Below are positions 2,967-58,516 of a stretch of DNA of 64,000 nucleotides, one piece after another; the first letter of the stretch is position 1; each line of letters opens with the position of its first letter. Origin of the DNA: an uncultured Mycoplasmatota bacterium (GTDB lineage: Bacteria > Bacillota_I > Bacilli_A > RF39 > UBA660); the NCBI GenBank assembly GCA_947649365.1, contig CANSRH010000007.1:854-64853 (forward strand), in the 5' to 3' direction. Under the pieces are notes generated by a model. The model did no database searches, was not told where the DNA came from, and worked only from the letters and a program-made list of their open reading frames with translations. The translations under genes were made by a program, and so were the position numbers.

Positions 2967-3164
2967 CTATTCAAAAAAAATATCGTCTGGTTTTAGGTTA
3001 AAAATAATAGCTATACGTTTTGCCATATCGTAATAAAGTCGTCTTTTTTTATGTTCAATTTGCCAATAAAAACATTTACTAATTCCTAACATTTCTGCCA
3101 TTTCTTCATAACTATATTTTTTTTCTTTTCGAATTTTAGTCAATTTTATATAACTACTTCCCAT
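2967..3164 (-). CDS. Small XRE-family HTH transcriptional regulator
   Basis: The 65-aa protein has an HTH core EEMAEMLGISKCFYWQIE. It is a close paralog of the 4017..4277 gene product. Confidence 0.6.
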   Translation of the reverse strand: MGSSYIKLTKIRKEKKYSYEEMAEMLGISKCFYWQIEHKKRRLYYDMAKRIAIIFNLKPDDIFFE

Positions 3165-3278
3165 ATTTCTACCTCACCTATTATTCTTTTATTTAAATTA
3201 TAACACACTTTATTACAATAACCCACACATTTCCGTATTTTAATTCTTTTTACGAGAAAATTAGAAATAGGTGATACT

Positions 3279-4016: not shown

Positions 4017-4277
4017 TTAGTTGTCTTCTTTTTCTAGTTCTTCTGTTTCTTCATAAAAAATATCATCTGGTTTTAAATCAAAAATAGCTGCAATTTTCTT
4101 TGCCATATCATAATAAAGTCTTCGATTTTTATGTTCAATTTGCCAATAAAACGCTTTACTAATCCCTAATATTTCTGCCATATCCAAATAACTTAACCCT
4201 TTTTTTTCTCTAAGTTCTCTTAAATAATTCATACTTTTCTTTACCATAACTCTCTCTAAATGAGACTTATCATACAC
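4017..4277 (-). CDS. Small XRE-family HTH transcriptional regulator (paralog of 2967..3164)
   Basis: The 86-aa protein shares the core LGISKAFYWQIEHKNRRLYYDMAKKIAAIFDLKPDDIFYE, nearly identical to the 2967..3164 product, and adds an acidic C-terminal tail. Confidence 0.6.
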   Translation of the reverse strand: MYDKSHLERVMVKKSMNYLRELREKKGLSYLDMAEILGISKAFYWQIEHKNRRLYYDMAKKIAAIFDLKPDDIFYEETEELEKEDN

Positions 4278-8979: not shown

Positions 8980-10770
8980 TTATTCATACCATGAAGATAC
9001 AATATTTACATTGCTACTTTGTGGCATAGGATCAGGTAGATGGAATCTAGTAAGCAAAGGAACTCGGAAAGCACTACCAAACACTAAAGCTGTTCCAGGA
9101 CGGAGCGTTTTCAATTTTTCGATATCTTGACTAGACAAATTACTAGAAATGGAAACAACAATTTTCAAATCTTCTGGATGAAAAATACGATAAATTAAAA
9201 AGTTAGAACACTGTGACAAACAAGTAGTAGATAACTCACTCGGTCTTTGCGTAACAAAGCCTAAAATCAAGCCATACTTCCTTCCCTCTTTCGTAATTCG
9301 ATCAAAAATATTGTAGCCGATAACATCAATATCATTATCATTTTGAACATAACGATGTGCTTCCTCAATAATAATATGAATTGGAAAACTTGCTCGTTCT
9401 TTTAAGGTAGTAGCAAACTCAAAATACAACTTCATATAAAGTTTTGTTAGTATCTTAGCAAAACGTTCATCGACATAATTAAAATTCATATTTAAAAGTT
9501 GAGCATACTCATTGGTACTCGTTAAAAACATACTTTTGACAAATTGTTCTTTACCAATATAGCCTTTATCATATTCAAAATACTTTCTTTGTTCACTATT
9601 CAAAATAGAATGCATTCTGACACGTAATTCATTTGCTTTCTCATACAAAGTAGCATTAGTAAGCATTCCCTCACTCATCAAAGCAAACTCCAAAGCATGA
9701 TACAAATCTTCTAACGAATACACAAGTTCACTACGGTCAATAGAAAAAGTCTCTAAAGTAATAAACCCATTTAAATATTCAATAACAAACTGTAATGCCC
9801 CCATTTTTCCATTTTGATCAATATTTAAACATTGCTTTAGCGTTCTTGTATAACCTGGTTGAACAATAGGACTCTCCAAATTTAAAACCGAAGTATGAAA
9901 CTTATTCAAAGTAGAAATAATTTGATCACTCAATTGGGTAGAAGACTTTCCACTTCCTATAATATCGAGCAAACTTTTAGCAATAATAGAATTTTTATAT
10001 TGAATTACTTTTTCGTTTTCTCCTTTAAAAATAGCCACATATTGTAATGTTTTTTCTAAAATAGGAAGCAAAGTAGAATCATTTACATTTAAAAGCAAGG
10101 CAAGATCATCGACTTCTAAAAAATAAGCTGGAATCGTAACTATTTCTGTCTCTGCCTCATCTACATCTGTACGAGTTGTATAATATTTCACATTAATATT
10201 GGGTAAAGTATTTATTTTAGACAAAGCCGTATGGTATTCTCCATACACATCAAAAATCACCATATGAGCATTCACAGGCATCTTCGTATTGTAATAAAAT
10301 AAATTTTGAATCAAACTAGCCACTCCGCAAGATTTACCACAACCAGAATTTCCTATAATGGCAAAATGATGTGTCAAAAAATCATTCATATTCGCTGTAA
10401 CTTGATAACCTTCATACAAAGAAGAAGAACCGATTAAAATCGTATCAGAAGAATTATAATCTTGAGAGCCAATAATAAGCTCCAATTCTTGCTTATAAAC
10501 AATACGACATACACTTGCAACACTTGGGTATTTAATAACCCCCGAAATAAATTCATTCCCACGGATTTCTCCAATCAACAAAATAGAAATTTCTGTTTCA
10601 TTCATTCCTATTATTTCACCAACAATTTTAAAAAAATTTCCTCCATTTTCTCCCGTTTCTTCAAAGATAACATGAAAATTAATTACATTGGCTTGAATCG
10701 TTTTTTTTAAATTTTCTACCTTAACAATTTTATCTTCTATTTTTAATAATTTTCCAAACATACTAGTCAC
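8980..10770 (-). CDS. HerA/FtsK-like DUF87 ATPase of unknown function
   Basis: The 596-aa protein has Walker A GNSGCGKS, a Walker B-like IIIEEAH, and the central-domain layout of HerA-type hexameric ATPases. No NurA, Sir2 or other partner gene is adjacent. Confidence 0.6.
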   Translation of the reverse strand: MTSMFGKLLKIEDKIVKVENLKKTIQANVINFHVIFEETGENGGNFFKIVGEIIGMNETEISILLIGEIRGNEFISGVIKYPSVASVCRIVYKQELELIIGSQDYNSSDTILIGSSSLYEGYQVTANMNDFLTHHFAIIGNSGCGKSCGVASLIQNLFYYNTKMPVNAHMVIFDVYGEYHTALSKINTLPNINVKYYTTRTDVDEAETEIVTIPAYFLEVDDLALLLNVNDSTLLPILEKTLQYVAIFKGENEKVIQYKNSIIAKSLLDIIGSGKSSTQLSDQIISTLNKFHTSVLNLESPIVQPGYTRTLKQCLNIDQNGKMGALQFVIEYLNGFITLETFSIDRSELVYSLEDLYHALEFALMSEGMLTNATLYEKANELRVRMHSILNSEQRKYFEYDKGYIGKEQFVKSMFLTSTNEYAQLLNMNFNYVDERFAKILTKLYMKLYFEFATTLKERASFPIHIIIEEAHRYVQNDNDIDVIGYNIFDRITKEGRKYGLILGFVTQRPSELSTTCLSQCSNFLIYRIFHPEDLKIVVSISSNLSSQDIEKLKTLRPGTALVFGSAFRVPLLTRFHLPDPMPQSSNVNIVSSWYE

Positions 10771-22116: not shown

Positions 22117-22228
22117 ACGAACCACTATCCTATCATTATTATGATACCATAGATTAATAACATATTGTGAAAAAATACGACAAAAAAACACAAAATTAAC
22201 TTTGTGCGAAAAAAAGAAATACAGTTCA

Positions 22229-23485
22229 TTAAATAATAACAATTCGATAAGGATTCTCTATTGTTCCATCACCACTTTGGTATTGTACATCTGATTTTAA
22301 ATAGAACGTTGGACGAATATTATTTATATTAGAAGAATACATCACTCGATTTTGATTAGGATAACCATTAGGATATAATCCCCAAACAGCTTTTCCATAA
22401 GTGTTATCCACATAATTTTGTTCAGGTGAAATCGTCCATTCATAATATTTTTCTTCTAACAAATATAACCAAGCTTTATTTATATAGTCTTGTGCACTAT
22501 TGTAAATACTAGTAAACCAATAATTTTTTTCTATCGAAAAAGCATAATCAGAAGGATACATTAATCCAATATTAGATAGAAAATAAATATTTCCTCCACT
22601 CTTACCACTTATATTACTTCTCTCAACATTGTAAAATTGTTCAGCCGTATAAGTAGAATATTGATTATTAGCTGGTGCTCCTAAATACCATTTGGCTTGC
22701 CCTATAAATTGCTGATAATCTTTAATAGTATTCCAAAATACAGTATTTAAAACATCAGTATTTAAAGGACTTATCTCCCATATATTGCTACCATTGCTTT
22801 TATTCCAACGATACCCTTTCTTGCTTGGAGAATTTGTAGCATTTTCCAAAAAACCACTTTCCTCTTCAATATAAAAATCTGCTTTAATAAGTTTAACCCG
22901 ATTCTCATATTCTCCAGTTTCACTAGATTGAGTTGGTATCACTCCAATCACTCGATATAAATTATCATTCGTACAATTCTCACTACATCCAAAATAAATA
23001 TAATTATCTGGGTTAGATCCAACATATCGATAATCAGTTAAACTTGGTGTTTGTTCTGTTGATGCATGATCTATTTTTTCTATTCCTGCATTTGTACCAC
23101 TTAAACTAATTATATAATTATTCAACATGATTCCAGAAAAAAACTCTATTGTACATTTCACTTTTCCTTCATTGATATTTCGAATATTGGGTCCCCATTC
23201 TTCATAATCCCAATATCCTTCTGCTCCTTTATCACAAGTTATACTTACATCATACGCTCCCTTACTAGGTAACGTATTTATACTTTCTCCATCCATTGTA
23301 ATGGCAAGTTCCAAATCTCCACTAACAAACGATGGTACTCGTCCTCTTAGGACATTGAATGTCTTTTCTTCTTTATATAAAGCAAATGTTTTGTATAAGG
23401 TAATACTTCCTACTACAATTAGGATTCCCACTATACTAAATACTACTTGTTTCTTTCTTCTTTTGTTTTTACTAAACCTTTCCAA
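22229..23485 (-). CDS. Membrane-anchored secreted protein of unknown function, candidate phase-variable (paralog of 54530..55777)
   Basis: The 418-aa ORF has a signal anchor VVFSIVGILIVVGSITL and the C-terminal motif GDGTIENPYRIVII. In the ORF track it can only start at TTG without an RBS. An upstream ATG with a GGAGAG RBS is separated from the body by a G10 tract; see findings. Confidence 0.55.
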   Translation of the reverse strand: MERFSKNKRRKKQVVFSIVGILIVVGSITLYKTFALYKEEKTFNVLRGRVPSFVSGDLELAITMDGESINTLPSKGAYDVSITCDKGAEGYWDYEEWGPNIRNINEGKVKCTIEFFSGIMLNNYIISLSGTNAGIEKIDHASTEQTPSLTDYRYVGSNPDNYIYFGCSENCTNDNLYRVIGVIPTQSSETGEYENRVKLIKADFYIEEESGFLENATNSPSKKGYRWNKSNGSNIWEISPLNTDVLNTVFWNTIKDYQQFIGQAKWYLGAPANNQYSTYTAEQFYNVERSNISGKSGGNIYFLSNIGLMYPSDYAFSIEKNYWFTSIYNSAQDYINKAWLYLLEEKYYEWTISPEQNYVDNTYGKAVWGLYPNGYPNQNRVMYSSNINNIRPTFYLKSDVQYQSGDGTIENPYRIVII

Positions 23486-23507
23486 TCCTTCTGGTTTACT
23501 TAATGTA

Positions 23508-23517
23508 CCCCCCCCCC
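23508..23517 (-). repeat. Homopolymeric tract: C10 on plus strand (G10 on the coding minus strand) between an upstream ATG and the body of the 22229..23485 gene
   Basis: Counted directly in the sequence. Confidence 0.9.
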
Positions 23518-23642
23518 AGAAGTCTTGTTCTGGTTGGGAGATTGTTTTTTATCTTTTTCATTTCATCTCTCCTCTATTTTCTATTATTATTCTAACGTAA
23601 TCTTTATAGAAAAACAACTCAAAAAAAGAAAAACAGTAAGAA

Positions 23643-50690: not shown

Positions 50691-51248
50691 CTAATAGCCT
50701 CTTTTTTTATAATGTTTATACAATTCTTTAAAACGATTAAAATGGATAATTTCTCTTTGACGTAAGAATAAAAGTGGTCCAATGACATCTTCATCGGTTG
50801 CCAGTTCAATTAAATTTTCATACACGGCTCTTGCTTTTTGCTCCGCAGCCATATCCTCAGAAATATCAGCAATGGGATCTCCTGTTACAGCAAAATAAGC
50901 AGTTGTATAAGGAACTCCACTTGCATTGGATGGATACACACCTAAACCATGTTCAGAATACATATCTCCAAGTCCTGCTGCTTTCATTTCTTCTACACTT
51001 GCCCCTTCTGTAAGTTGTTTAATCATTGTAGCAATCATTTCAACATGACCTAGTTCCTCCGTTGCTATATCATTTAATAAGCTTTTCCCTTTTTCATCAG
51101 GCATAGAAAATTTTTGACTAAAATAACGTAAAGCCGCTGCAAGCTCAGAATTAGAACCTCCAAATTGGGTATGTAGATACTTTGCCATTTTCAAATCTCT
51201 TTTTTTAATATTCACTGGATAATTTAAAGTTTTCATATATTTAAACAT
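50691..51248 (-). CDS. cotJC: Spore coat protein CotJC (manganese-catalase-like ferritin fold)
   Basis: LNYPVNIKKRDLKMAKYL...GGSNSELAAALRYFSQKFSMPD...TEELGHVEMIATMI...GDPIADISEDMAAEQKARAVYENLIEL aligns throughout with B. subtilis CotJC. Confidence 0.85.
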   Translation of the reverse strand: MFKYMKTLNYPVNIKKRDLKMAKYLHTQFGGSNSELAAALRYFSQKFSMPDEKGKSLLNDIATEELGHVEMIATMIKQLTEGASVEEMKAAGLGDMYSEHGLGVYPSNASGVPYTTAYFAVTGDPIADISEDMAAEQKARAVYENLIELATDEDVIGPLLFLRQREIIHFNRFKELYKHYKKRGY

Positions 51249-51699
51249 ACATACTACCTCCTGATTTATCCCATGGCCATGGATTTTTCATCCATTCATA
51301 ACTTCCACCACTTGTTTGATCCAAAGAAAGTGGACCATATTGTTTTGCATATTGATCTTTTAATTCTATGCACTCTTTCGTATATTGTTTAAACTTTTCA
51401 TATATTTTTTGGTCCTCAGGATGTAAATCTAAATATAAGTTTAAATCATTCACAGCAAAATCTTTCTCCATAATTTGATAAAGCAATGCTTCTCGTTCAC
51501 AAGTTGGACGCAATGGCATATACGTCATTCCTTTATAAGGTTCGTACTCATTTTTCCACATATTTCCTCGTAAAAAACCTTCTTTAGAATTTACAAGTGC
51601 ATCGTCTTGAAAACCAAAATAATTTTGCTCAGGTTCTGAAAAAGAAAAGCCAGCCAATGAGAGAACATCAAAATCGTAATCATTATTTTCAAATAACAT
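51241..51699 (-). CDS. cotJB: CotJB-family spore coat protein with an N-terminal CotJA-like extension (apparent cotJA-cotJB fusion)
   Basis: The C-terminal half (IMEKDFAVNDLNLYLDLHPEDQKIYEKFKQYTKECIELKDQYAKQYGPL...NPWPWDKSG) matches CotJB. The N-terminal ~65 aa (FLRGNMWKNEYEPYKG, PTCEREAL) resembles the CotJA C-terminal motif. It overlaps cotJC by 8 nt. Confidence 0.6.
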   Translation of the reverse strand: MLFENNDYDFDVLSLAGFSFSEPEQNYFGFQDDALVNSKEGFLRGNMWKNEYEPYKGMTYMPLRPTCEREALLYQIMEKDFAVNDLNLYLDLHPEDQKIYEKFKQYTKECIELKDQYAKQYGPLSLDQTSGGSYEWMKNPWPWDKSGGSMYV

Positions 51700-54388: not shown

Positions 54389-54529
54389 TGGTAACTTGTC
54401 CTCCTAAAAAACTATATGTGGACAACCTCTAAAAAAGACTATTTACTTATATAAAAAAAAGAATCAACTTACCAATATTAGTAAATTAATTCTCCAATAA
54501 AAAGATATATAGAATTCTTTTAATAGTTA

Positions 54530-55777
54530 CTACATGTCAATGCGATAAGGATTCTCTCTTGAACCATCACCACTTTTATATTTTATATTTGCTTTTAAAT
54601 AAAATACTGGTCGAACACCTTTCCCAACAGTAGAATGAGCCATAATCACTTCTCCTGTAGAAGAAATACTAACAACATAATACCCACCGTTTATACCCGA
54701 ACTCTCTTGAGTAATAACCCATTCATCGTATTTATTTTCTAAATTATAGAGCCAAGAACCAGATAAATAATTTCCAGTATAAGATTTTATAGACAAATCA
54801 AAATAATTGGTTCCAAGAGAATAGCCATAATCAGAAGGATACATAAGACCTATCTTTCCAAGAAATTGCAACATTCCTTTATTTACTCCTTTTGTAGAAG
54901 AACGTTCAATTTGATAAAACTGATTGGGAGAATAATTTTCATAACTACCATAAGTAATCGAACCCAAATACCATAAAGTATCTTCTACATAATTCTTGTA
55001 TTCCCCAAAACTATTCCAATAGACATCATTTAATACGTTTCTTTGTAACGTACTTTCTTCCCATTTAACCGTAGAATTATGATTCCAACTATATCCGACT
55101 CCATTCGTTGCAGAAGAAGAATTTTTTAAAAAACCACTACTCGTTTCTGTATAATTGCTTGCTTTAATTAACTTCACTCGATTCTCGTATTCTCCATCCA
55201 TACTTTTTTGAGTTGGTATCACTCCAATAATTCGATATAAATTGTCATCTGTACAATTCTCACTACATCCAAAATACACATAATTATTTACTTCTTCATT
55301 CGATCCAACATATCGATAATCTTCTAATGCTGGTGTCTGTTCTGTTGCTTCATGACTTACCTTGACTACATGATTACTCGTATCACTTAAATCCTTTATA
55401 TACTCACTAAAATATTTCCCTCGTTTAAATTGGATGGTACATTTTGTCTTTGTTTCTTTAATATTCTGAAGATAAGGTCCCCATCTTTCATAATCCCAAT
55501 ATCCTTTGGCCCCTTTATCACAAGTTATACTTACATCATACGCTCCCTTACTAGGTAATGTATTTATACTTTCTCCATCCATTGTAATGGCAAGTTCCAA
55601 ATCTCCACTAACAAACGATGGTACTCGTCCTCTTAGGACATTGAATGTCTTTTCTTCTTTATATAAAGCAAATGTTTTGTATAGTGTTATACTTCCTAGT
55701 ACTATCAGTATCCCTAATATAGAACCAAGTACTACTTTCTTGTTTCTTTTGTTTTTACTAAATTTTTCTAATTTCAA
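54530..55777 (-). CDS. Membrane-anchored secreted protein of unknown function, paralog of 22229..23485
   Basis: It shares a near-identical N-terminal ~95 aa (signal anchor through ITCDKGA) and scattered conserved blocks (YFGCSENCT.DNLYR.IGVIPTQ, ENRVKLIKA, IGLMYPSDY, GDGSRENPYRI). The start was set at the TTG 10 nt after AGGAGAG (MKLEKFSKNK); the ORF track extends it to 55876. Confidence 0.55.
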   Translation of the reverse strand: MKLEKFSKNKRNKKVVLGSILGILIVLGSITLYKTFALYKEEKTFNVLRGRVPSFVSGDLELAITMDGESINTLPSKGAYDVSITCDKGAKGYWDYERWGPYLQNIKETKTKCTIQFKRGKYFSEYIKDLSDTSNHVVKVSHEATEQTPALEDYRYVGSNEEVNNYVYFGCSENCTDDNLYRIIGVIPTQKSMDGEYENRVKLIKASNYTETSSGFLKNSSSATNGVGYSWNHNSTVKWEESTLQRNVLNDVYWNSFGEYKNYVEDTLWYLGSITYGSYENYSPNQFYQIERSSTKGVNKGMLQFLGKIGLMYPSDYGYSLGTNYFDLSIKSYTGNYLSGSWLYNLENKYDEWVITQESSGINGGYYVVSISSTGEVIMAHSTVGKGVRPVFYLKANIKYKSGDGSRENPYRIDM

Positions 55778-55909
55778 TTTCAACACTCTCCTAAAATATG
55801 AATTGCCATATTGTACAAAAAGAATAACAAAAGAAAACGAACAAAACCACGACATAACACTTCGTGGCAAATTCAAAAAATATATGACATAGTATATTCA
55901 AGTGATTCT

Positions 55910-56116
55910 ATGATAAAAAAATATAGAAAACAAGCAAAATTAACACAAGAAGAATTAGCAGAAAAATTAGAAATTAGCACTAGACAATTACAACGTTTAG
56001 AAAAGAAAACAGATCTTCCAAGCTTTTCTACTCTACAAAAAATGGTAATTATTCTAAATATTAATGATGCAGATTTAGGAAACTACGTAAGAAATTTAAA
56101 AAAAAGAATAAAATAA
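55910..56116 (+). CDS. Small XRE-family HTH transcriptional regulator
   Basis: AKLTQEELAEKLEISTRQLQRLEKKTDLPSFSTLQKMVIILNINDADL is the HTH region. The start was chosen at the internal ATG; the ORF track starts at 55811. Confidence 0.5.
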   Translation: MIKKYRKQAKLTQEELAEKLEISTRQLQRLEKKTDLPSFSTLQKMVIILNINDADLGNYVRNLKKRIK

Positions 56117-56157: not shown

Positions 56158-56820
56158 TTAAATTTTATATAATTTTGTATTTTTACGCGAAATAGTAAAT
56201 ACACCAACCGCTAAAACAATTCCAGCAATGATAACAAGGTATGGCATAGAACTACCAGTTTGAGGATTAGTTACACATTCAGCATTGTAAACAGCCTCAG
56301 TAACTTCATTTCCATTTTTACCATAGTATTTTCCACCAATAACACGACAAGTATAACTTTCTTCTACTGTAATTTTGTTACCACAAGTAAAATTTCCATT
56401 TTCGTCATAACAAGGAATCAACTCAATTGCACATTTTTCCCCAGCCGTATTTACATCTAAAACAATTGTTGCAATTGTAAACTTCGCACTAGACACGGGA
56501 CTAGTTGTTGTAAAGATTAAATTTGTATTTGAAGTAGACTCATTTACCCAAGGACTACTTGCAGTAATAGATTTTACTGTCATATTTTGTAAAGCAAGTG
56601 TTGCAGTAAATCTTGATAAACTGCTTCCTCCAGTAGCTCTACCTATAATATAGCAAGTTTCTTCTGTTGCATTTCCTCTCTCATCATGTTTAGTAGCTTC
56701 ACAATAAAAACCATCTTTACTACTTCCTTTTACAGTTTCATTGAAAGCTAAGTCTGCATTTACGCTCATTGGTAATACTACCATCATTGCTAAAACGATT
56801 AAGCCTATAACTTTTTTCAT
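56158..56820 (-). CDS. Cys-rich secreted protein with C-terminal NPQTG sortase sorting signal (candidate sortase B substrate)
   Basis: The signal peptide MKKVIGLIVLAMMVVLPMSVNA opens a mature domain with about 9 Cys. It ends in NPQTG, a hydrophobic segment (LVIIAGIVLAVGVFTI) and a basic tail SRKNTKLYKI, a textbook cell-wall sorting signal of the NPxTG class. Confidence 0.6.
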   Translation of the reverse strand: MKKVIGLIVLAMMVVLPMSVNADLAFNETVKGSSKDGFYCEATKHDERGNATEETCYIIGRATGGSSLSRFTATLALQNMTVKSITASSPWVNESTSNTNLIFTTTSPVSSAKFTIATIVLDVNTAGEKCAIELIPCYDENGNFTCGNKITVEESYTCRVIGGKYYGKNGNEVTEAVYNAECVTNPQTGSSMPYLVIIAGIVLAVGVFTISRKNTKLYKI

Positions 56821-56962
56821 TTTATATACCTCTTTCTTCTACTATTATGTCTTAATTATAGCATAAAAATTCATAAAAGCTATCATTTTTTATAAAATAT
56901 ACAAAAAATCTGTAAATTTGTGGTATGATATAAAATGTAAGAATAAAAAAGGTGGTGGTTTC

Positions 56963-58516
56963 ATGCAAAAAATTTTGATGAGTATATCAAAAGAAACAAT
57001 ACGATTTACATACAAAGAAGAACCATCTTTTGCCATTAAATTAGATAAAGAACATACCACTACTTCCAATGAAATTTCATTTACAAAAGAATACATTACC
57101 ATTCATCAAAAAATAGTCACAGATTTTATTTTAGAGCTTTGTAAAGAGAAAAATATTCGTAGTGTTTCTTTTGAAACCTATGAACTTGCCCTATTTTTAT
57201 TGGAATTATTCAAAAAAAATCCAGAAATTCATGCGATTTGCATCCGTGAAGCTGCTCCTTTAACGTTTTCATTGTATGAAAAAATAATAGAAAACAAAAA
57301 CATTCATTATGTAGAAGCAGAAAGCATTCCAAAATACATGATTGAAATGCTAGACAAAAAAGGTATACGTTCTGAATCTCGGACAGAAATCTTCTATCCG
57401 AGTGAATTAATGCAAACCAACAACCTAGTGAGTTATTCCAAAATTTTTTATAAAACCAACATCCGCATTGGAACCATATTTACAGAAGAAGATCGCGACG
57501 ACTTTCTAGCGTTCTGTAACATCAACAATTACTTAAAAACCATTCATTTGGATATATTTAACAAACGAGATTTAGAATTTATTTTAGACAGCATTACAGA
57601 AAATCGAAGAAAAAATATTAACATCTTAATTCATGTCAACATAAAAGATTACAAAACCATTGAATACTTGAAAAAAACCAACAAAAGAATGAAAAAAAAC
57701 AAATTACACATTGATCTTGTCTATGACAAAGAATATTTAAAAAACAATTTATTTCCTCAAATTCTTATGAATATGTTAAAAATATGTGGTTTAATTTTAG
57801 TTATCTTTGTAGTAAGCATTATTAGTTACATCAGTATAAGCAATTACGTTGCCTTACAAGAAGTAACTCAAATACAAGAAAACCTAAAAGAAACCATTAA
57901 AGAAGGCAATACAGAAAATATAGAAATTGAAAACCCTATTGAAAAAGAAATCAAAAACGATTACATTGTATCCTTACTTCCAATTAACCCTGATGTCATT
58001 GGATGGTTAAAAGTAAACAACACCAATGTAGACTATCCAGTAGTCCAATCAAATGACAACGAATACTATTTAAAACACAATCTTTACAAAGAAACCGATA
58101 AAAATGGCTGGATATTTATGGATTATAGAAACTCTCACAACTTTTTAGATGCGAACACCATTATTTATGGCCACAACATGTACTATAGTGGAGTCATGTT
58201 TGGAACTCTTGTCAATGCTTACAAAAAAACCTGGTATACAAACCCTGAAAATCAAATCATTAGTTACGATACCATCTACGAAAGCAACAAATACCAAATC
58301 TTCTCTATTTATAAAGTACAAAAAACAAAAGATTATTTAAAAACTTATTTCGGTAGTGACGAAGAATTCAACAACTATGTTGATCTTGTAAAAGGAAGAA
58401 GCATTCATGACTTTGGAATAGAAGTCAACCCAGGAGACAAAATATTAACCCTTTCTACCTGCACAGGAGAAAATCAACGTCTCGTCATTCATGCCAAATT
58501 AATACCTGAGAGTTAA
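56963..58516 (+). CDS. srtB: Class B-like sortase with an unusual ~280-aa N-terminal cytoplasmic domain of unknown function
   Basis: The C-terminal ~230 aa carry sortase B hallmarks: YPVVQSNDNEYYLKHNLY, the catalytic His in IIYGHNM, the TLSTC catalytic Cys motif and RLVIHAKL. A TM helix sits at LILVIFVVSIISYISI. AGGTGGTGG precedes the ATG at 56963. Confidence 0.7.
   Translation: MQKILMSISKETIRFTYKEEPSFAIKLDKEHTTTSNEISFTKEYITIHQKIVTDFILELCKEKNIRSVSFETYELALFLLELFKKNPEIHAICIREAAPLTFSLYEKIIENKNIHYVEAESIPKYMIEMLDKKGIRSESRTEIFYPSELMQTNNLVSYSKIFYKTNIRIGTIFTEEDRDDFLAFCNINNYLKTIHLDIFNKRDLEFILDSITENRRKNINILIHVNIKDYKTIEYLKKTNKRMKKNKLHIDLVYDKEYLKNNLFPQILMNMLKICGLILVIFVVSIISYISISNYVALQEVTQIQENLKETIKEGNTENIEIENPIEKEIKNDYIVSLLPINPDVIGWLKVNNTNVDYPVVQSNDNEYYLKHNLYKETDKNGWIFMDYRNSHNFLDANTIIYGHNMYYSGVMFGTLVNAYKKTWYTNPENQIISYDTIYESNKYQIFSIYKVQKTKDYLKTYFGSDEEFNNYVDLVKGRSIHDFGIEVNPGDKILTLSTCTGENQRLVIHAKLIPES

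Follow-up and report, generated by a model that had tools for sequence, protein, structure and literature searches.

Evidence for recent gene conversion between two dispersed paralogues of a predicted membrane-anchored, lectin-like protein family, one of them behind a candidate poly-G switch, in an uncultured bacterium

Two paralogous genes, here termed A and B, are carried about 32 kb apart on the minus strand of a 64,000-nucleotide (nt) stretch of DNA from an uncultured Mycoplasmatota bacterium (assembly GCA_947649365.1, contig CANSRH010000007.1, positions 854 to 64,853), hereafter the window, whose coordinates are used throughout. The bodies of these genes have diverged, and within them lies an internal patch of 172 nt that differs at one position; comparison with relatives from another lineage indicates that this patch is a recent gene-conversion tract and not the result of nucleotide-level selection. 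Copy A occupies 22229..23485 and encodes 418 amino acids (aa) as listed from a TTG at 23485, a description that draws on the list of open reading frames (ORFs), an AlphaFold2 model and Foldseek. Copy B occupies 54530..55777, encodes 415 aa from a TTG at 55777 and has the same domain order as A; a longer listed ORF (54530..55876) contains it, the start of B being the TTG that stands behind the ribosome-binding site AGGAGAG. Both are dispersed members of a large family that has no name and occurs in gut Firmicutes of low GC content, namely Bacilli-class metagenome-assembled genomes.

The two proteins are 58% identical (243/418, E 4e-171), a figure that drops to approximately 51% outside the near-identical block, so that the original prediction was fair in placing their diverged bodies at roughly half protein identity; the conserved islands that it listed (YFGCSENCT, IGLMYPSDY and GDG..ENPYRI) are all found in the alignment of A with B. 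In A the block spans 23226..23397 and encodes LYKTFALYKEEKTFNVLRGRVPSFVSGDLELAITMDGESINTLPSKGAYDVSITCDKG (codons 30-87); its partner in B spans 55512..55683, at an offset of 32,286 nt, and the earlier coordinates of 23227-23400 and 55511-55685 were right to within 1-3 nt. The single mismatch in these 172 nt falls at position 23273 of A, and widening the block to 23201-23397 brings the count to 4 mismatches in 197 nt. When nucleotide identity is plotted along the gene pair, a sharp discontinuity appears at the block instead of uniform divergence, with values of 0.95-1.00 inside it that fall to 0.65-0.75 immediately on its upstream side and 0.50-0.68 immediately on its downstream side, the remainder of the gene ranging from 0.38 to 0.90. 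Synonymous sites follow the same course. Across codons 30-87, 55 of the 58 codons are identical and all three differences are synonymous, against a background, from codon 99 onwards, in which the same codon is used at 106 of the 153 identical residues (69%); the probability of such codon identity arising by chance is ~1e-6 by our own binomial estimate.

The block begins at codon 30, inside the predicted membrane helix, spans the linker and ends after the residues CDKG, halfway through a small beta domain. It had been proposed to represent an anchor or secretion module, a description that does not hold because the basic N-terminus and most of the helix lie outside it. Since diverged sequence flanks the tract on both sides, it is an internal patch, as opposed to a 5' end that both copies inherited by duplication. 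Sliding nucleotide identity shows no relationship between the two loci ahead of their start codons. At the other end of the gene, A-B identity climbs to 0.82 over the final 60 nt, and the 3' end of A together with a short downstream flank (22193..22317, minus strand) is 72.6% identical to 54483-54615 of B by blastn self-comparison; this end of A forms the constant tail beyond the variable region. The most diverged part of the pair, with an A-B nucleotide identity of 0.38-0.68, is 22316..22885 (aa 201-390, minus strand), which matches the hypervariable cassette of the wider family described below. A tblastn search of the window revealed no third copy or silent cassette, and self-comparison of the window found only the A/B pair and an unrelated pair of 160 nt.

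The case for gene conversion is carried by a comparison with the closest full-length relatives of A and B, the proteins P0005 and P0006 (encoded in loci L009 and L010), whose orthology to A and B is taken from similarity only. Between A and B, identity inside the block is 0.97-0.98, whereas either of them is 0.74-0.78 identical to P0005 or P0006; outside it the relationship is reversed, with the identity between B and P0005 over aligned columns 121-210 of the body (0.82-0.84) exceeding that between A and B (0.63-0.81). Only within one internal tract, then, does each copy resemble the other more closely than it does its counterparts, which is the signature of gene conversion, and this tract of near-identity within diverged paralogues includes the synonymous sites. 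Against P0005 and P0006 the block shows 40 differences, 21 of them at third codon positions, with 12-13 synonymous codon changes, and, being only 74-78% identical across lineages, it is without cross-species nucleotide constraint. The suggestion of recombination or gene conversion contained in the original prediction is therefore borne out, both by synonymous sites that are identical only in the block and by the contrast between the A-B comparison and that with P0005/P0006. The same prediction had conversion maintaining a conserved module; the conversion stands, but nothing supports upkeep of the segment by selection, and the event may be a neutral by-product of frequent recombination between paralogues. 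P0005 and P0006 themselves, which come from two different samples and occupy the same kind of locus behind a divergent small helix-turn-helix (HTH) gene, are 94-99% identical until just after CDKGA, where the A/B block also ends, and 58-74% identical thereafter. In these two sequences the 5' part is constant and the body behind it has undergone allelic replacement.

Segment exchange of this kind extends across the family. A profile search of 1.84 billion representative proteins returned 7,494 clusters (defined at 50% identity) at E <= 1e-3 and 1,395 at E <= 1e-30, and none of the top 120 relatives carries a name or a precomputed Pfam domain. Those relatives that could be located in genomes derive from rabbit and Hadza samples, in assemblies of uncultured gut Bacilli, 'Tenericutes' or Clostridiales. 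Among approximately 120 homologues, 37 pairs are at least 93% identical over the equivalent of A aa 121-200 yet 33-61% identical over aa 201-390, and most of these mosaic pairs are also 88-100% identical in their last 25 residues; the reverse pattern, with a variable aa 121-200 and a constant aa 201-390, was not found among these homologues. Two paralogues in L011 are 88% identical over 365 nt that comprise the promoter region, leader, G-run, helix and linker, and share nothing beyond; two copies in L003 are 77% identical over their first 500 nt only; and in L001 two copies are 93% identical over their last 717 nt whilst their 5' ends differ. In two strains of one species (L013 and L015), with flanks that are 97-100% identical, tandem family genes lie downstream of a leucyl-tRNA synthetase-like gene, the first of which contains a sharply bounded cassette of 600 nt (L013 10530-11128) with 39-63% identity between the strains; in the second tandem gene the mosaic is finer. 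P0060 looks like a chimera of the two tandem types, its N-terminal part being that of the first and its C-terminal part that of the second, with the conserved NLYRIIGV.PTQ island as the junction, and representatives of its two parent types, P0045 and P0056, sit in tandem at one locus. Other arrangements were also seen, including two tandem bodies directly behind the anchor and linker (P0002 and P0003) and giant members with up to 7-8 matches to the family profile (P0133, 2,446 aa; P0144, 2,274 aa; P0161, 2,215 aa).

Three other accounts of the block, or of the variable cassettes, were weighed against recombination between paralogues. According to one of these, the block is kept by selection at the nucleotide level, for example on a binding site, a structure in the mRNA, or an antisense ORF or transcript, without any recombination. 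Plus-strand ORFs do overlap both blocks (23301-23600, 99 aa, and 55506-55892, 128 aa), and the linker motif YALYKEEKTFNV that the block encodes is strongly conserved across the family. Such antisense ORFs, however, follow automatically from block identity in an AT-rich genome and are probably spurious, sharing sequence only through that identity, and the substitutions that separate the block from its counterparts in the other lineage are of the kind left by ordinary selection on the protein. A search of the whole window against Rfam gave no match, which together with the cross-lineage comparison all but rules out a functional nucleotide element in the block, an explanation to which we assign the smallest probability of those considered. 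The identity could alternatively be an artefact of metagenome assembly, with reads of the two paralogues collapsed or cross-threaded, given that the contig (67,303 nt) was assembled from a metagenome. Both copies nevertheless lie in that one contig with unique, diverged flanks right beside the block on each side, De Bruijn assemblers leave sequences of 75% identity distinct, the block retains a mismatch and similar patterns recur in independent assemblies from other samples, all of which makes an artefact highly improbable.

The last of these accounts invokes a dedicated diversifier, either a diversity-generating retroelement or a shufflon in which a site-specific invertase works on silent cassettes. 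The sharp boundaries of the variable cassettes would suit such a system, DUF6273 domains, to which the body of A is related in fold (see below), are known retroelement targets in phage receptor-binding proteins (PMC10743442), and at one relative's locus a reverse-transcriptase (RVT_1) gene lies approximately 9 kb from the tandem family genes (L013 20549-21215). The variable regions, however, differ by 40-60% with insertions and deletions and not by adenine-specific substitutions, and no template repeat matching the family genes is present in L013; because no sequence there matches them, the RVT_1 gene is probably unrelated and may belong, for example, to a group II intron. Neither a reverse transcriptase nor a recombinase was found among the 31 window proteins scanned (30 against Pfam and an Xre-type protein by NCBIfam, with some 20 smaller ORFs left out), and the only repeats of the window are the two pairs given above, so that the reverse transcriptase and the template repeat expected near a retroelement target were not seen there. 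With no extra cassettes in the window either, a retroelement or shufflon was rejected, its remaining probability being as slight as that of an assembly artefact. Recombination between paralogues remains the preferred origin of the block.

A second feature distinguishes the two genes. Read directly from the sequence, the region upstream of A contains a leader (23496..23574, minus strand) that opens with a ribosome-binding site, GAGGAGAG, at 23574-23567, followed 5 nt later by an ATG at 23561, 14 codons and then a homopolymer of ten G residues (G10) at 23508..23517. As assembled, the leader is an open frame of 21 codons that reads through the G-run to a TAA stop at 23498-23496, and the frame of the A body has no start codon before the TTG at 23485, which itself is without usable Shine-Dalgarno spacing. 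The ATG at 23561 is one base out of frame with the body. A run of nine residues (G9) would restore the frame, fusing the leader to the body to give MKKIKNNLPTRTRLLGGGTLSKPEGLERFSKNKRRKK... (MKKIKNNLPTRTRLLGGGTLSKPEGLERFSK...), so that, as in contingency genes, the reading frame depends on the length of a homopolymer in 5' coding sequence. It is the sole run of at least eight G or C residues in the window, where 0.14 would be expected. From these sequence features, the G10 leader is a candidate slipped-strand contingency switch that would be OFF as assembled, its actual switching being inferred.

Relatives of A lend further weight to this suggestion. Homologous leaders of the form M..KKNLPT....L followed by G10 occur twice in L011 (1090-1099 and 7991-8000) and once in L012 (~9905-9914), all of them equally out of frame. 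In one related lineage the equivalent 5' position at the same locus carries an in-frame G9 in one sample (L017 1522-1530) and G11 in another (L018 1442-1452), and a second, paralogous locus of that lineage, with different flanks, carries G10 (L019 192-201); polymorphism of G-run length within the family is thereby demonstrable in one related lineage. Database proteins include in-frame leader forms (P0026, P0041, P0058 and P0064) alongside N-terminally truncated calls of near-identical proteins. The position of the run varies between lineages: in L002 a G11 (3227-3237) lies out of frame inside the 'GGG' codons of a membrane helix and not in a leader, and a second tandem copy opens with a G-run at the edge of the locus (1-9). 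The G-run of the leaders also forms the 3' arm of a predicted hairpin with a conserved upstream sequence, CCUCCCAACCAGAA (CCUCCC..CCAGAA), with a minimum free energy z of -3.0; its pairing is kept in all four instances (window 23505-23545, minus strand; L011 1062-1100 and 7963-8001; L012 9872-9915).

Copy B lacks this arrangement. No G-run was seen upstream of it when the sequence was read directly, and a normal ribosome-binding site, AGGAGAG, stands at 55792-55786 (minus strand), 8 nt before its TTG, in agreement with what had been noted earlier. Divergent from B lies a small gene for an Xre-type HTH protein (55910..56116, plus strand; NCBIfam HTH, E 1e-9), the start of which was taken at an internal ATG of the ORF 55811..56116 and which, from its position, is a candidate regulator of B. 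At the level of sequence, the G10 leader of A on one side and the normal ribosome-binding site and divergent HTH gene of B on the other support the expectation that the two copies are regulated differently. P0005 and P0006 likewise have a divergent small HTH gene. Because BLASTP finds no similarity between the HTH protein beside B and that beside P0005, the shared arrangement is alike in type only. Promoter and terminator scans around A and B gave counts at or below the shuffle expectation.

The architecture of the encoded proteins was approached with an AlphaFold2 model of A built on 60 homologues (mean pLDDT, the predicted local distance difference test, 90.1). In the model, a basic N-terminus runs into a long helix (aa 8-37). 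A disordered linker, modelled at low confidence (aa 36-55), connects this to a small beta domain (aa 58-117), behind which comes a body of ~300 aa (aa 121-418). We read the helix as a predicted membrane anchor with its basic end intracellular; the linker carries a family-wide motif, YALYKEEKTFNVL.G. Foldseek against the PDB gave one significant match, the IgA peptidase of Thomasclavelia ramosa (9qa6, E 4.6e-5, 324 columns, the aligned residue range not being displayed). The N-terminal domain of that peptidase (residues 31-321) is an enlarged C-type-lectin-like domain resembling the C-terminal domain of Legionella Lcl (PMC12237041) and has been annotated as DUF6273 (PMC12402451). Predicted phage proteins annotated as DUF6273 also match the model of A by Foldseek (E 1.8e-5 to 1e-3), so that similarity to the DUF6273 (PF19789)/C-type-lectin-like domain is found in fold. 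Among 60 family members, DUF6273 was the sole Pfam family matched repeatedly, though weakly (7 members, best E 0.0014). Against Pfam, A has no match at E <= 1 and B has only an irrelevant one at 0.19, neither reaching the gathering score of DUF6273, and a profile search against PDB sequences gave no match.

Other modes of surface attachment were sought in the same proteins. The sequences of A and B contain neither an LPXTG motif, their C-termini reading ...GDGTIENPYRIVII and ...GDGSRENPYRIDM, respectively, nor a lipobox cysteine. A SipW/TasA-type signal had been suspected from the pattern T-[FY]-A-x-[YF] that follows the membrane helix, and was rejected as the N-termini of A and of four relatives gave no NCBIfam match; one relative, P0109, matches Peptidase_M73 below the cutoff (E 0.0024). 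At the N-terminus there is a weak resemblance, also below the cutoff (E 0.004), to the model of a Mycoplasma agalactiae membrane protein. Topology and fold together lead us to infer a surface location for the A and B proteins.

Both genes belong to the core chromosome and neither is flanked by mobile-element genes. A is flanked by two M16 peptidase genes on one side and by ezrA on the other, and thiI, ackA and a cysteine-desulfurase-like gene are not far away; addAB, assigned by size, is probably also close by. B lies between a gene of 871 aa, by eye a putative P-type ATPase, and a small cluster of surface-protein genes, which encodes a 220-aa protein with a weak LPXTG-type signal and, on the opposite strand, a 532-aa protein with a C-terminal sortase domain (these two within 56158-58516), as well as a GT2-TPR protein. 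Beyond the 871-aa gene are cotJB and a manganese-catalase (cotJC-like) gene at 50691-51699, and the contig of one relative carries spoIIR (L012 8348-8854). Der, FtsK, RNase J and SufB are also encoded in the window, whose GC content is 31%. In view of the sortase and CotJB/CotJC, the organism appears to be a walled, probably spore-forming Firmicute and not a wall-less Mollicute. The repeat pair unrelated to A and B (2970-3126 and 4050-4209, 80.6% identity over 160 nt) appears by eye to encode two small paralogous HTH-like proteins on the reverse strand.

Taken together, these observations make it quite probable that A and B are dispersed paralogues of a membrane-anchored, lectin-like family that share a conversion tract and are under separate expression control. 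One of the two would have overwritten an internal piece of the other by recent non-reciprocal homologous recombination, leaving the 172-nt tract, presumably through a RecA-type process acting between flanks that are 75% identical. This tract would be one small instance of a family-wide process in which segments are swapped at conserved islands, thereby producing constant 5' parts and 3' tails, a hypervariable cassette of ~600 nt and chimeric genes. The predicted extracellular part, in which a small beta domain precedes an enlarged domain of C-type-lectin-like (DUF6273-like) fold, may serve as an exposed, adhesin-like, ligand-binding module, with the hypervariable region as a binding face under diversifying selection. 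In the sampled population A would be OFF in most cells and be turned ON by the loss of one G, whilst B would be controlled by its Xre-type neighbour. The likening of this pair to variable surface antigen families was apt, as relatives share both the pattern of a constant 5' part with a variable body and the G9/G10/G11 variation, their surface exposure being predicted.

A number of points weigh against this reading. P0005 and P0006 derive from different samples, so that they exemplify allelic cassette replacement rather than intragenomic conversion. A and B are known from one assembly only (P0001 and P0004 are single-member clusters): no further assembly of the same genome or of a sister strain was found, and a profile search of genome contigs gave distant relatives only; with a single assembly, ongoing conversion and switching of the G-run are not directly visible for A and B. 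Neither protein reaches a Pfam or NCBIfam threshold, which, with the empty profile search of PDB sequences, makes the body a distant relative of DUF6273 at the level of fold rather than a recognised member, and both localisation and ligand binding stand as predictions. Finally, the four leader-type runs found (in A, twice in L011 and in L012), admittedly a small sample, are all G10 and all out of frame, a uniformity that could mean transcriptional slippage or programmed frameshifting instead of random phase variation. On that explanation the leader of A would be a fixed frameshifting or slippage site, or a regulatory hairpin, and A would be expressed constitutively at a low level. The same -1 correction required by all four runs, and the pairing of the run with the conserved upstream sequence in the predicted hairpin, both fit such a site. 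Two of the four runs are not independent, however, because they come from one genome (L011) and have a 5' region in common; the bases paired in the hairpin hardly vary and so offer no support from covariation; and the related lineage has G9, G10 and G11 at the equivalent position, with G9 simply in frame, as are the leader forms in the database. A fixed site is consequently considered unlikely, although less so than any of the alternatives proposed for the block, and a slipped-strand switch is preferred.

In pathogens such as Helicobacter, Neisseria, Campylobacter and Mycoplasma, gene conversion and homopolymer switches in surface proteins are textbook phenomena. Such variation has barely been documented in uncultured Bacilli of low GC content, which are common in the guts of humans and animals, and here a large unannotated family combines a predicted lectin-like ectodomain with strain-level hypervariable cassettes and polymorphism in G-run length. 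Its genes are likely to shape interactions with the host, phages or glycans and to contribute to strain individuality. Gene callers systematically mis-annotate these genes, with many database entries truncated at the frameshifting G-run, and the hypervariable cassettes may add to contig breaks in metagenome assemblies. A broader proposal, to which we would give somewhat less than an even chance, is that the family, by uniting a DUF6273 lectin scaffold, cassette exchange between paralogues and strains, and hairpin-embedded poly-G gating, constitutes the main, retroelement-independent contingency surface system of uncultured gut Bacilli. If true, this would represent a way of varying, without retroelements, the scaffold that gut phages vary by means of them.

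Several known systems resemble the A/B family in part. The Vsp, Vlp and Vsa systems of Mycoplasma are multigene families with a conserved 5' region or leader on variable bodies and are subject to phase variation. They share with A and B the conserved 5' part and variable body; however, they are lipoproteins carrying a lipobox cysteine, their bodies are rich in repeats and their switching is often due to an invertase, whereas in A and B the lipobox cysteine is missing and the body is globular and lectin-like. The opa genes of Neisseria are dispersed copies with a frame-setting repeat in the region coding for the leader peptide, and their hypervariable segments are exchanged by recombination. 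Despite the likeness in dispersed copies, leader repeat and segment exchange, opa employs a CTCTT pentamer and encodes an 8-stranded outer-membrane barrel, and it is unrelated in sequence, fold and phylum. The bab genes of Helicobacter pylori have conserved end regions and diverged central parts. Intragenomic recombination between the babA, babB and babC loci, coupled with a 5' repeat switch, has been described (PMC4552749, PMC3444412). As proposed for A and B, these are dispersed, lectin-type adhesin paralogues subject to gene conversion, in which a 5' coding repeat switches one paralogue. Nevertheless, Bab proteins are beta-barrel adhesins of the Gram-negative outer membrane controlled by a CT dinucleotide repeat, whereas A and B are Firmicute proteins with a predicted single membrane pass and a C-type-lectin-like body, associated with a G homopolymer, and the two have no relation in sequence or fold. 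In the Gram-positive gut commensal Bifidobacterium breve, a 5' G-run acts as a replication-slippage ON/OFF switch for a sortase-dependent pilus (PMC9187656). The G-run of A resembles this poly-G switch, although the pilus subunits are sortase-anchored and no conversion between paralogues has been described for them, A and B being N-terminally membrane-anchored by prediction and without LPXTG. The DUF6273 C-type-lectin-like domain, for its part, is a scaffold that phages and gut microbes both use for variable binding (PMC12237041, PMC12402451, PMC10743442). The phage scaffold is diversified by retroelements, whereas the A/B family, for which no retroelement was found, is varied by segment exchange. 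The family thus belongs to none of the bab, opa or B. breve pilus families; its mechanism of variation is already known in kind, and the protein family is new.

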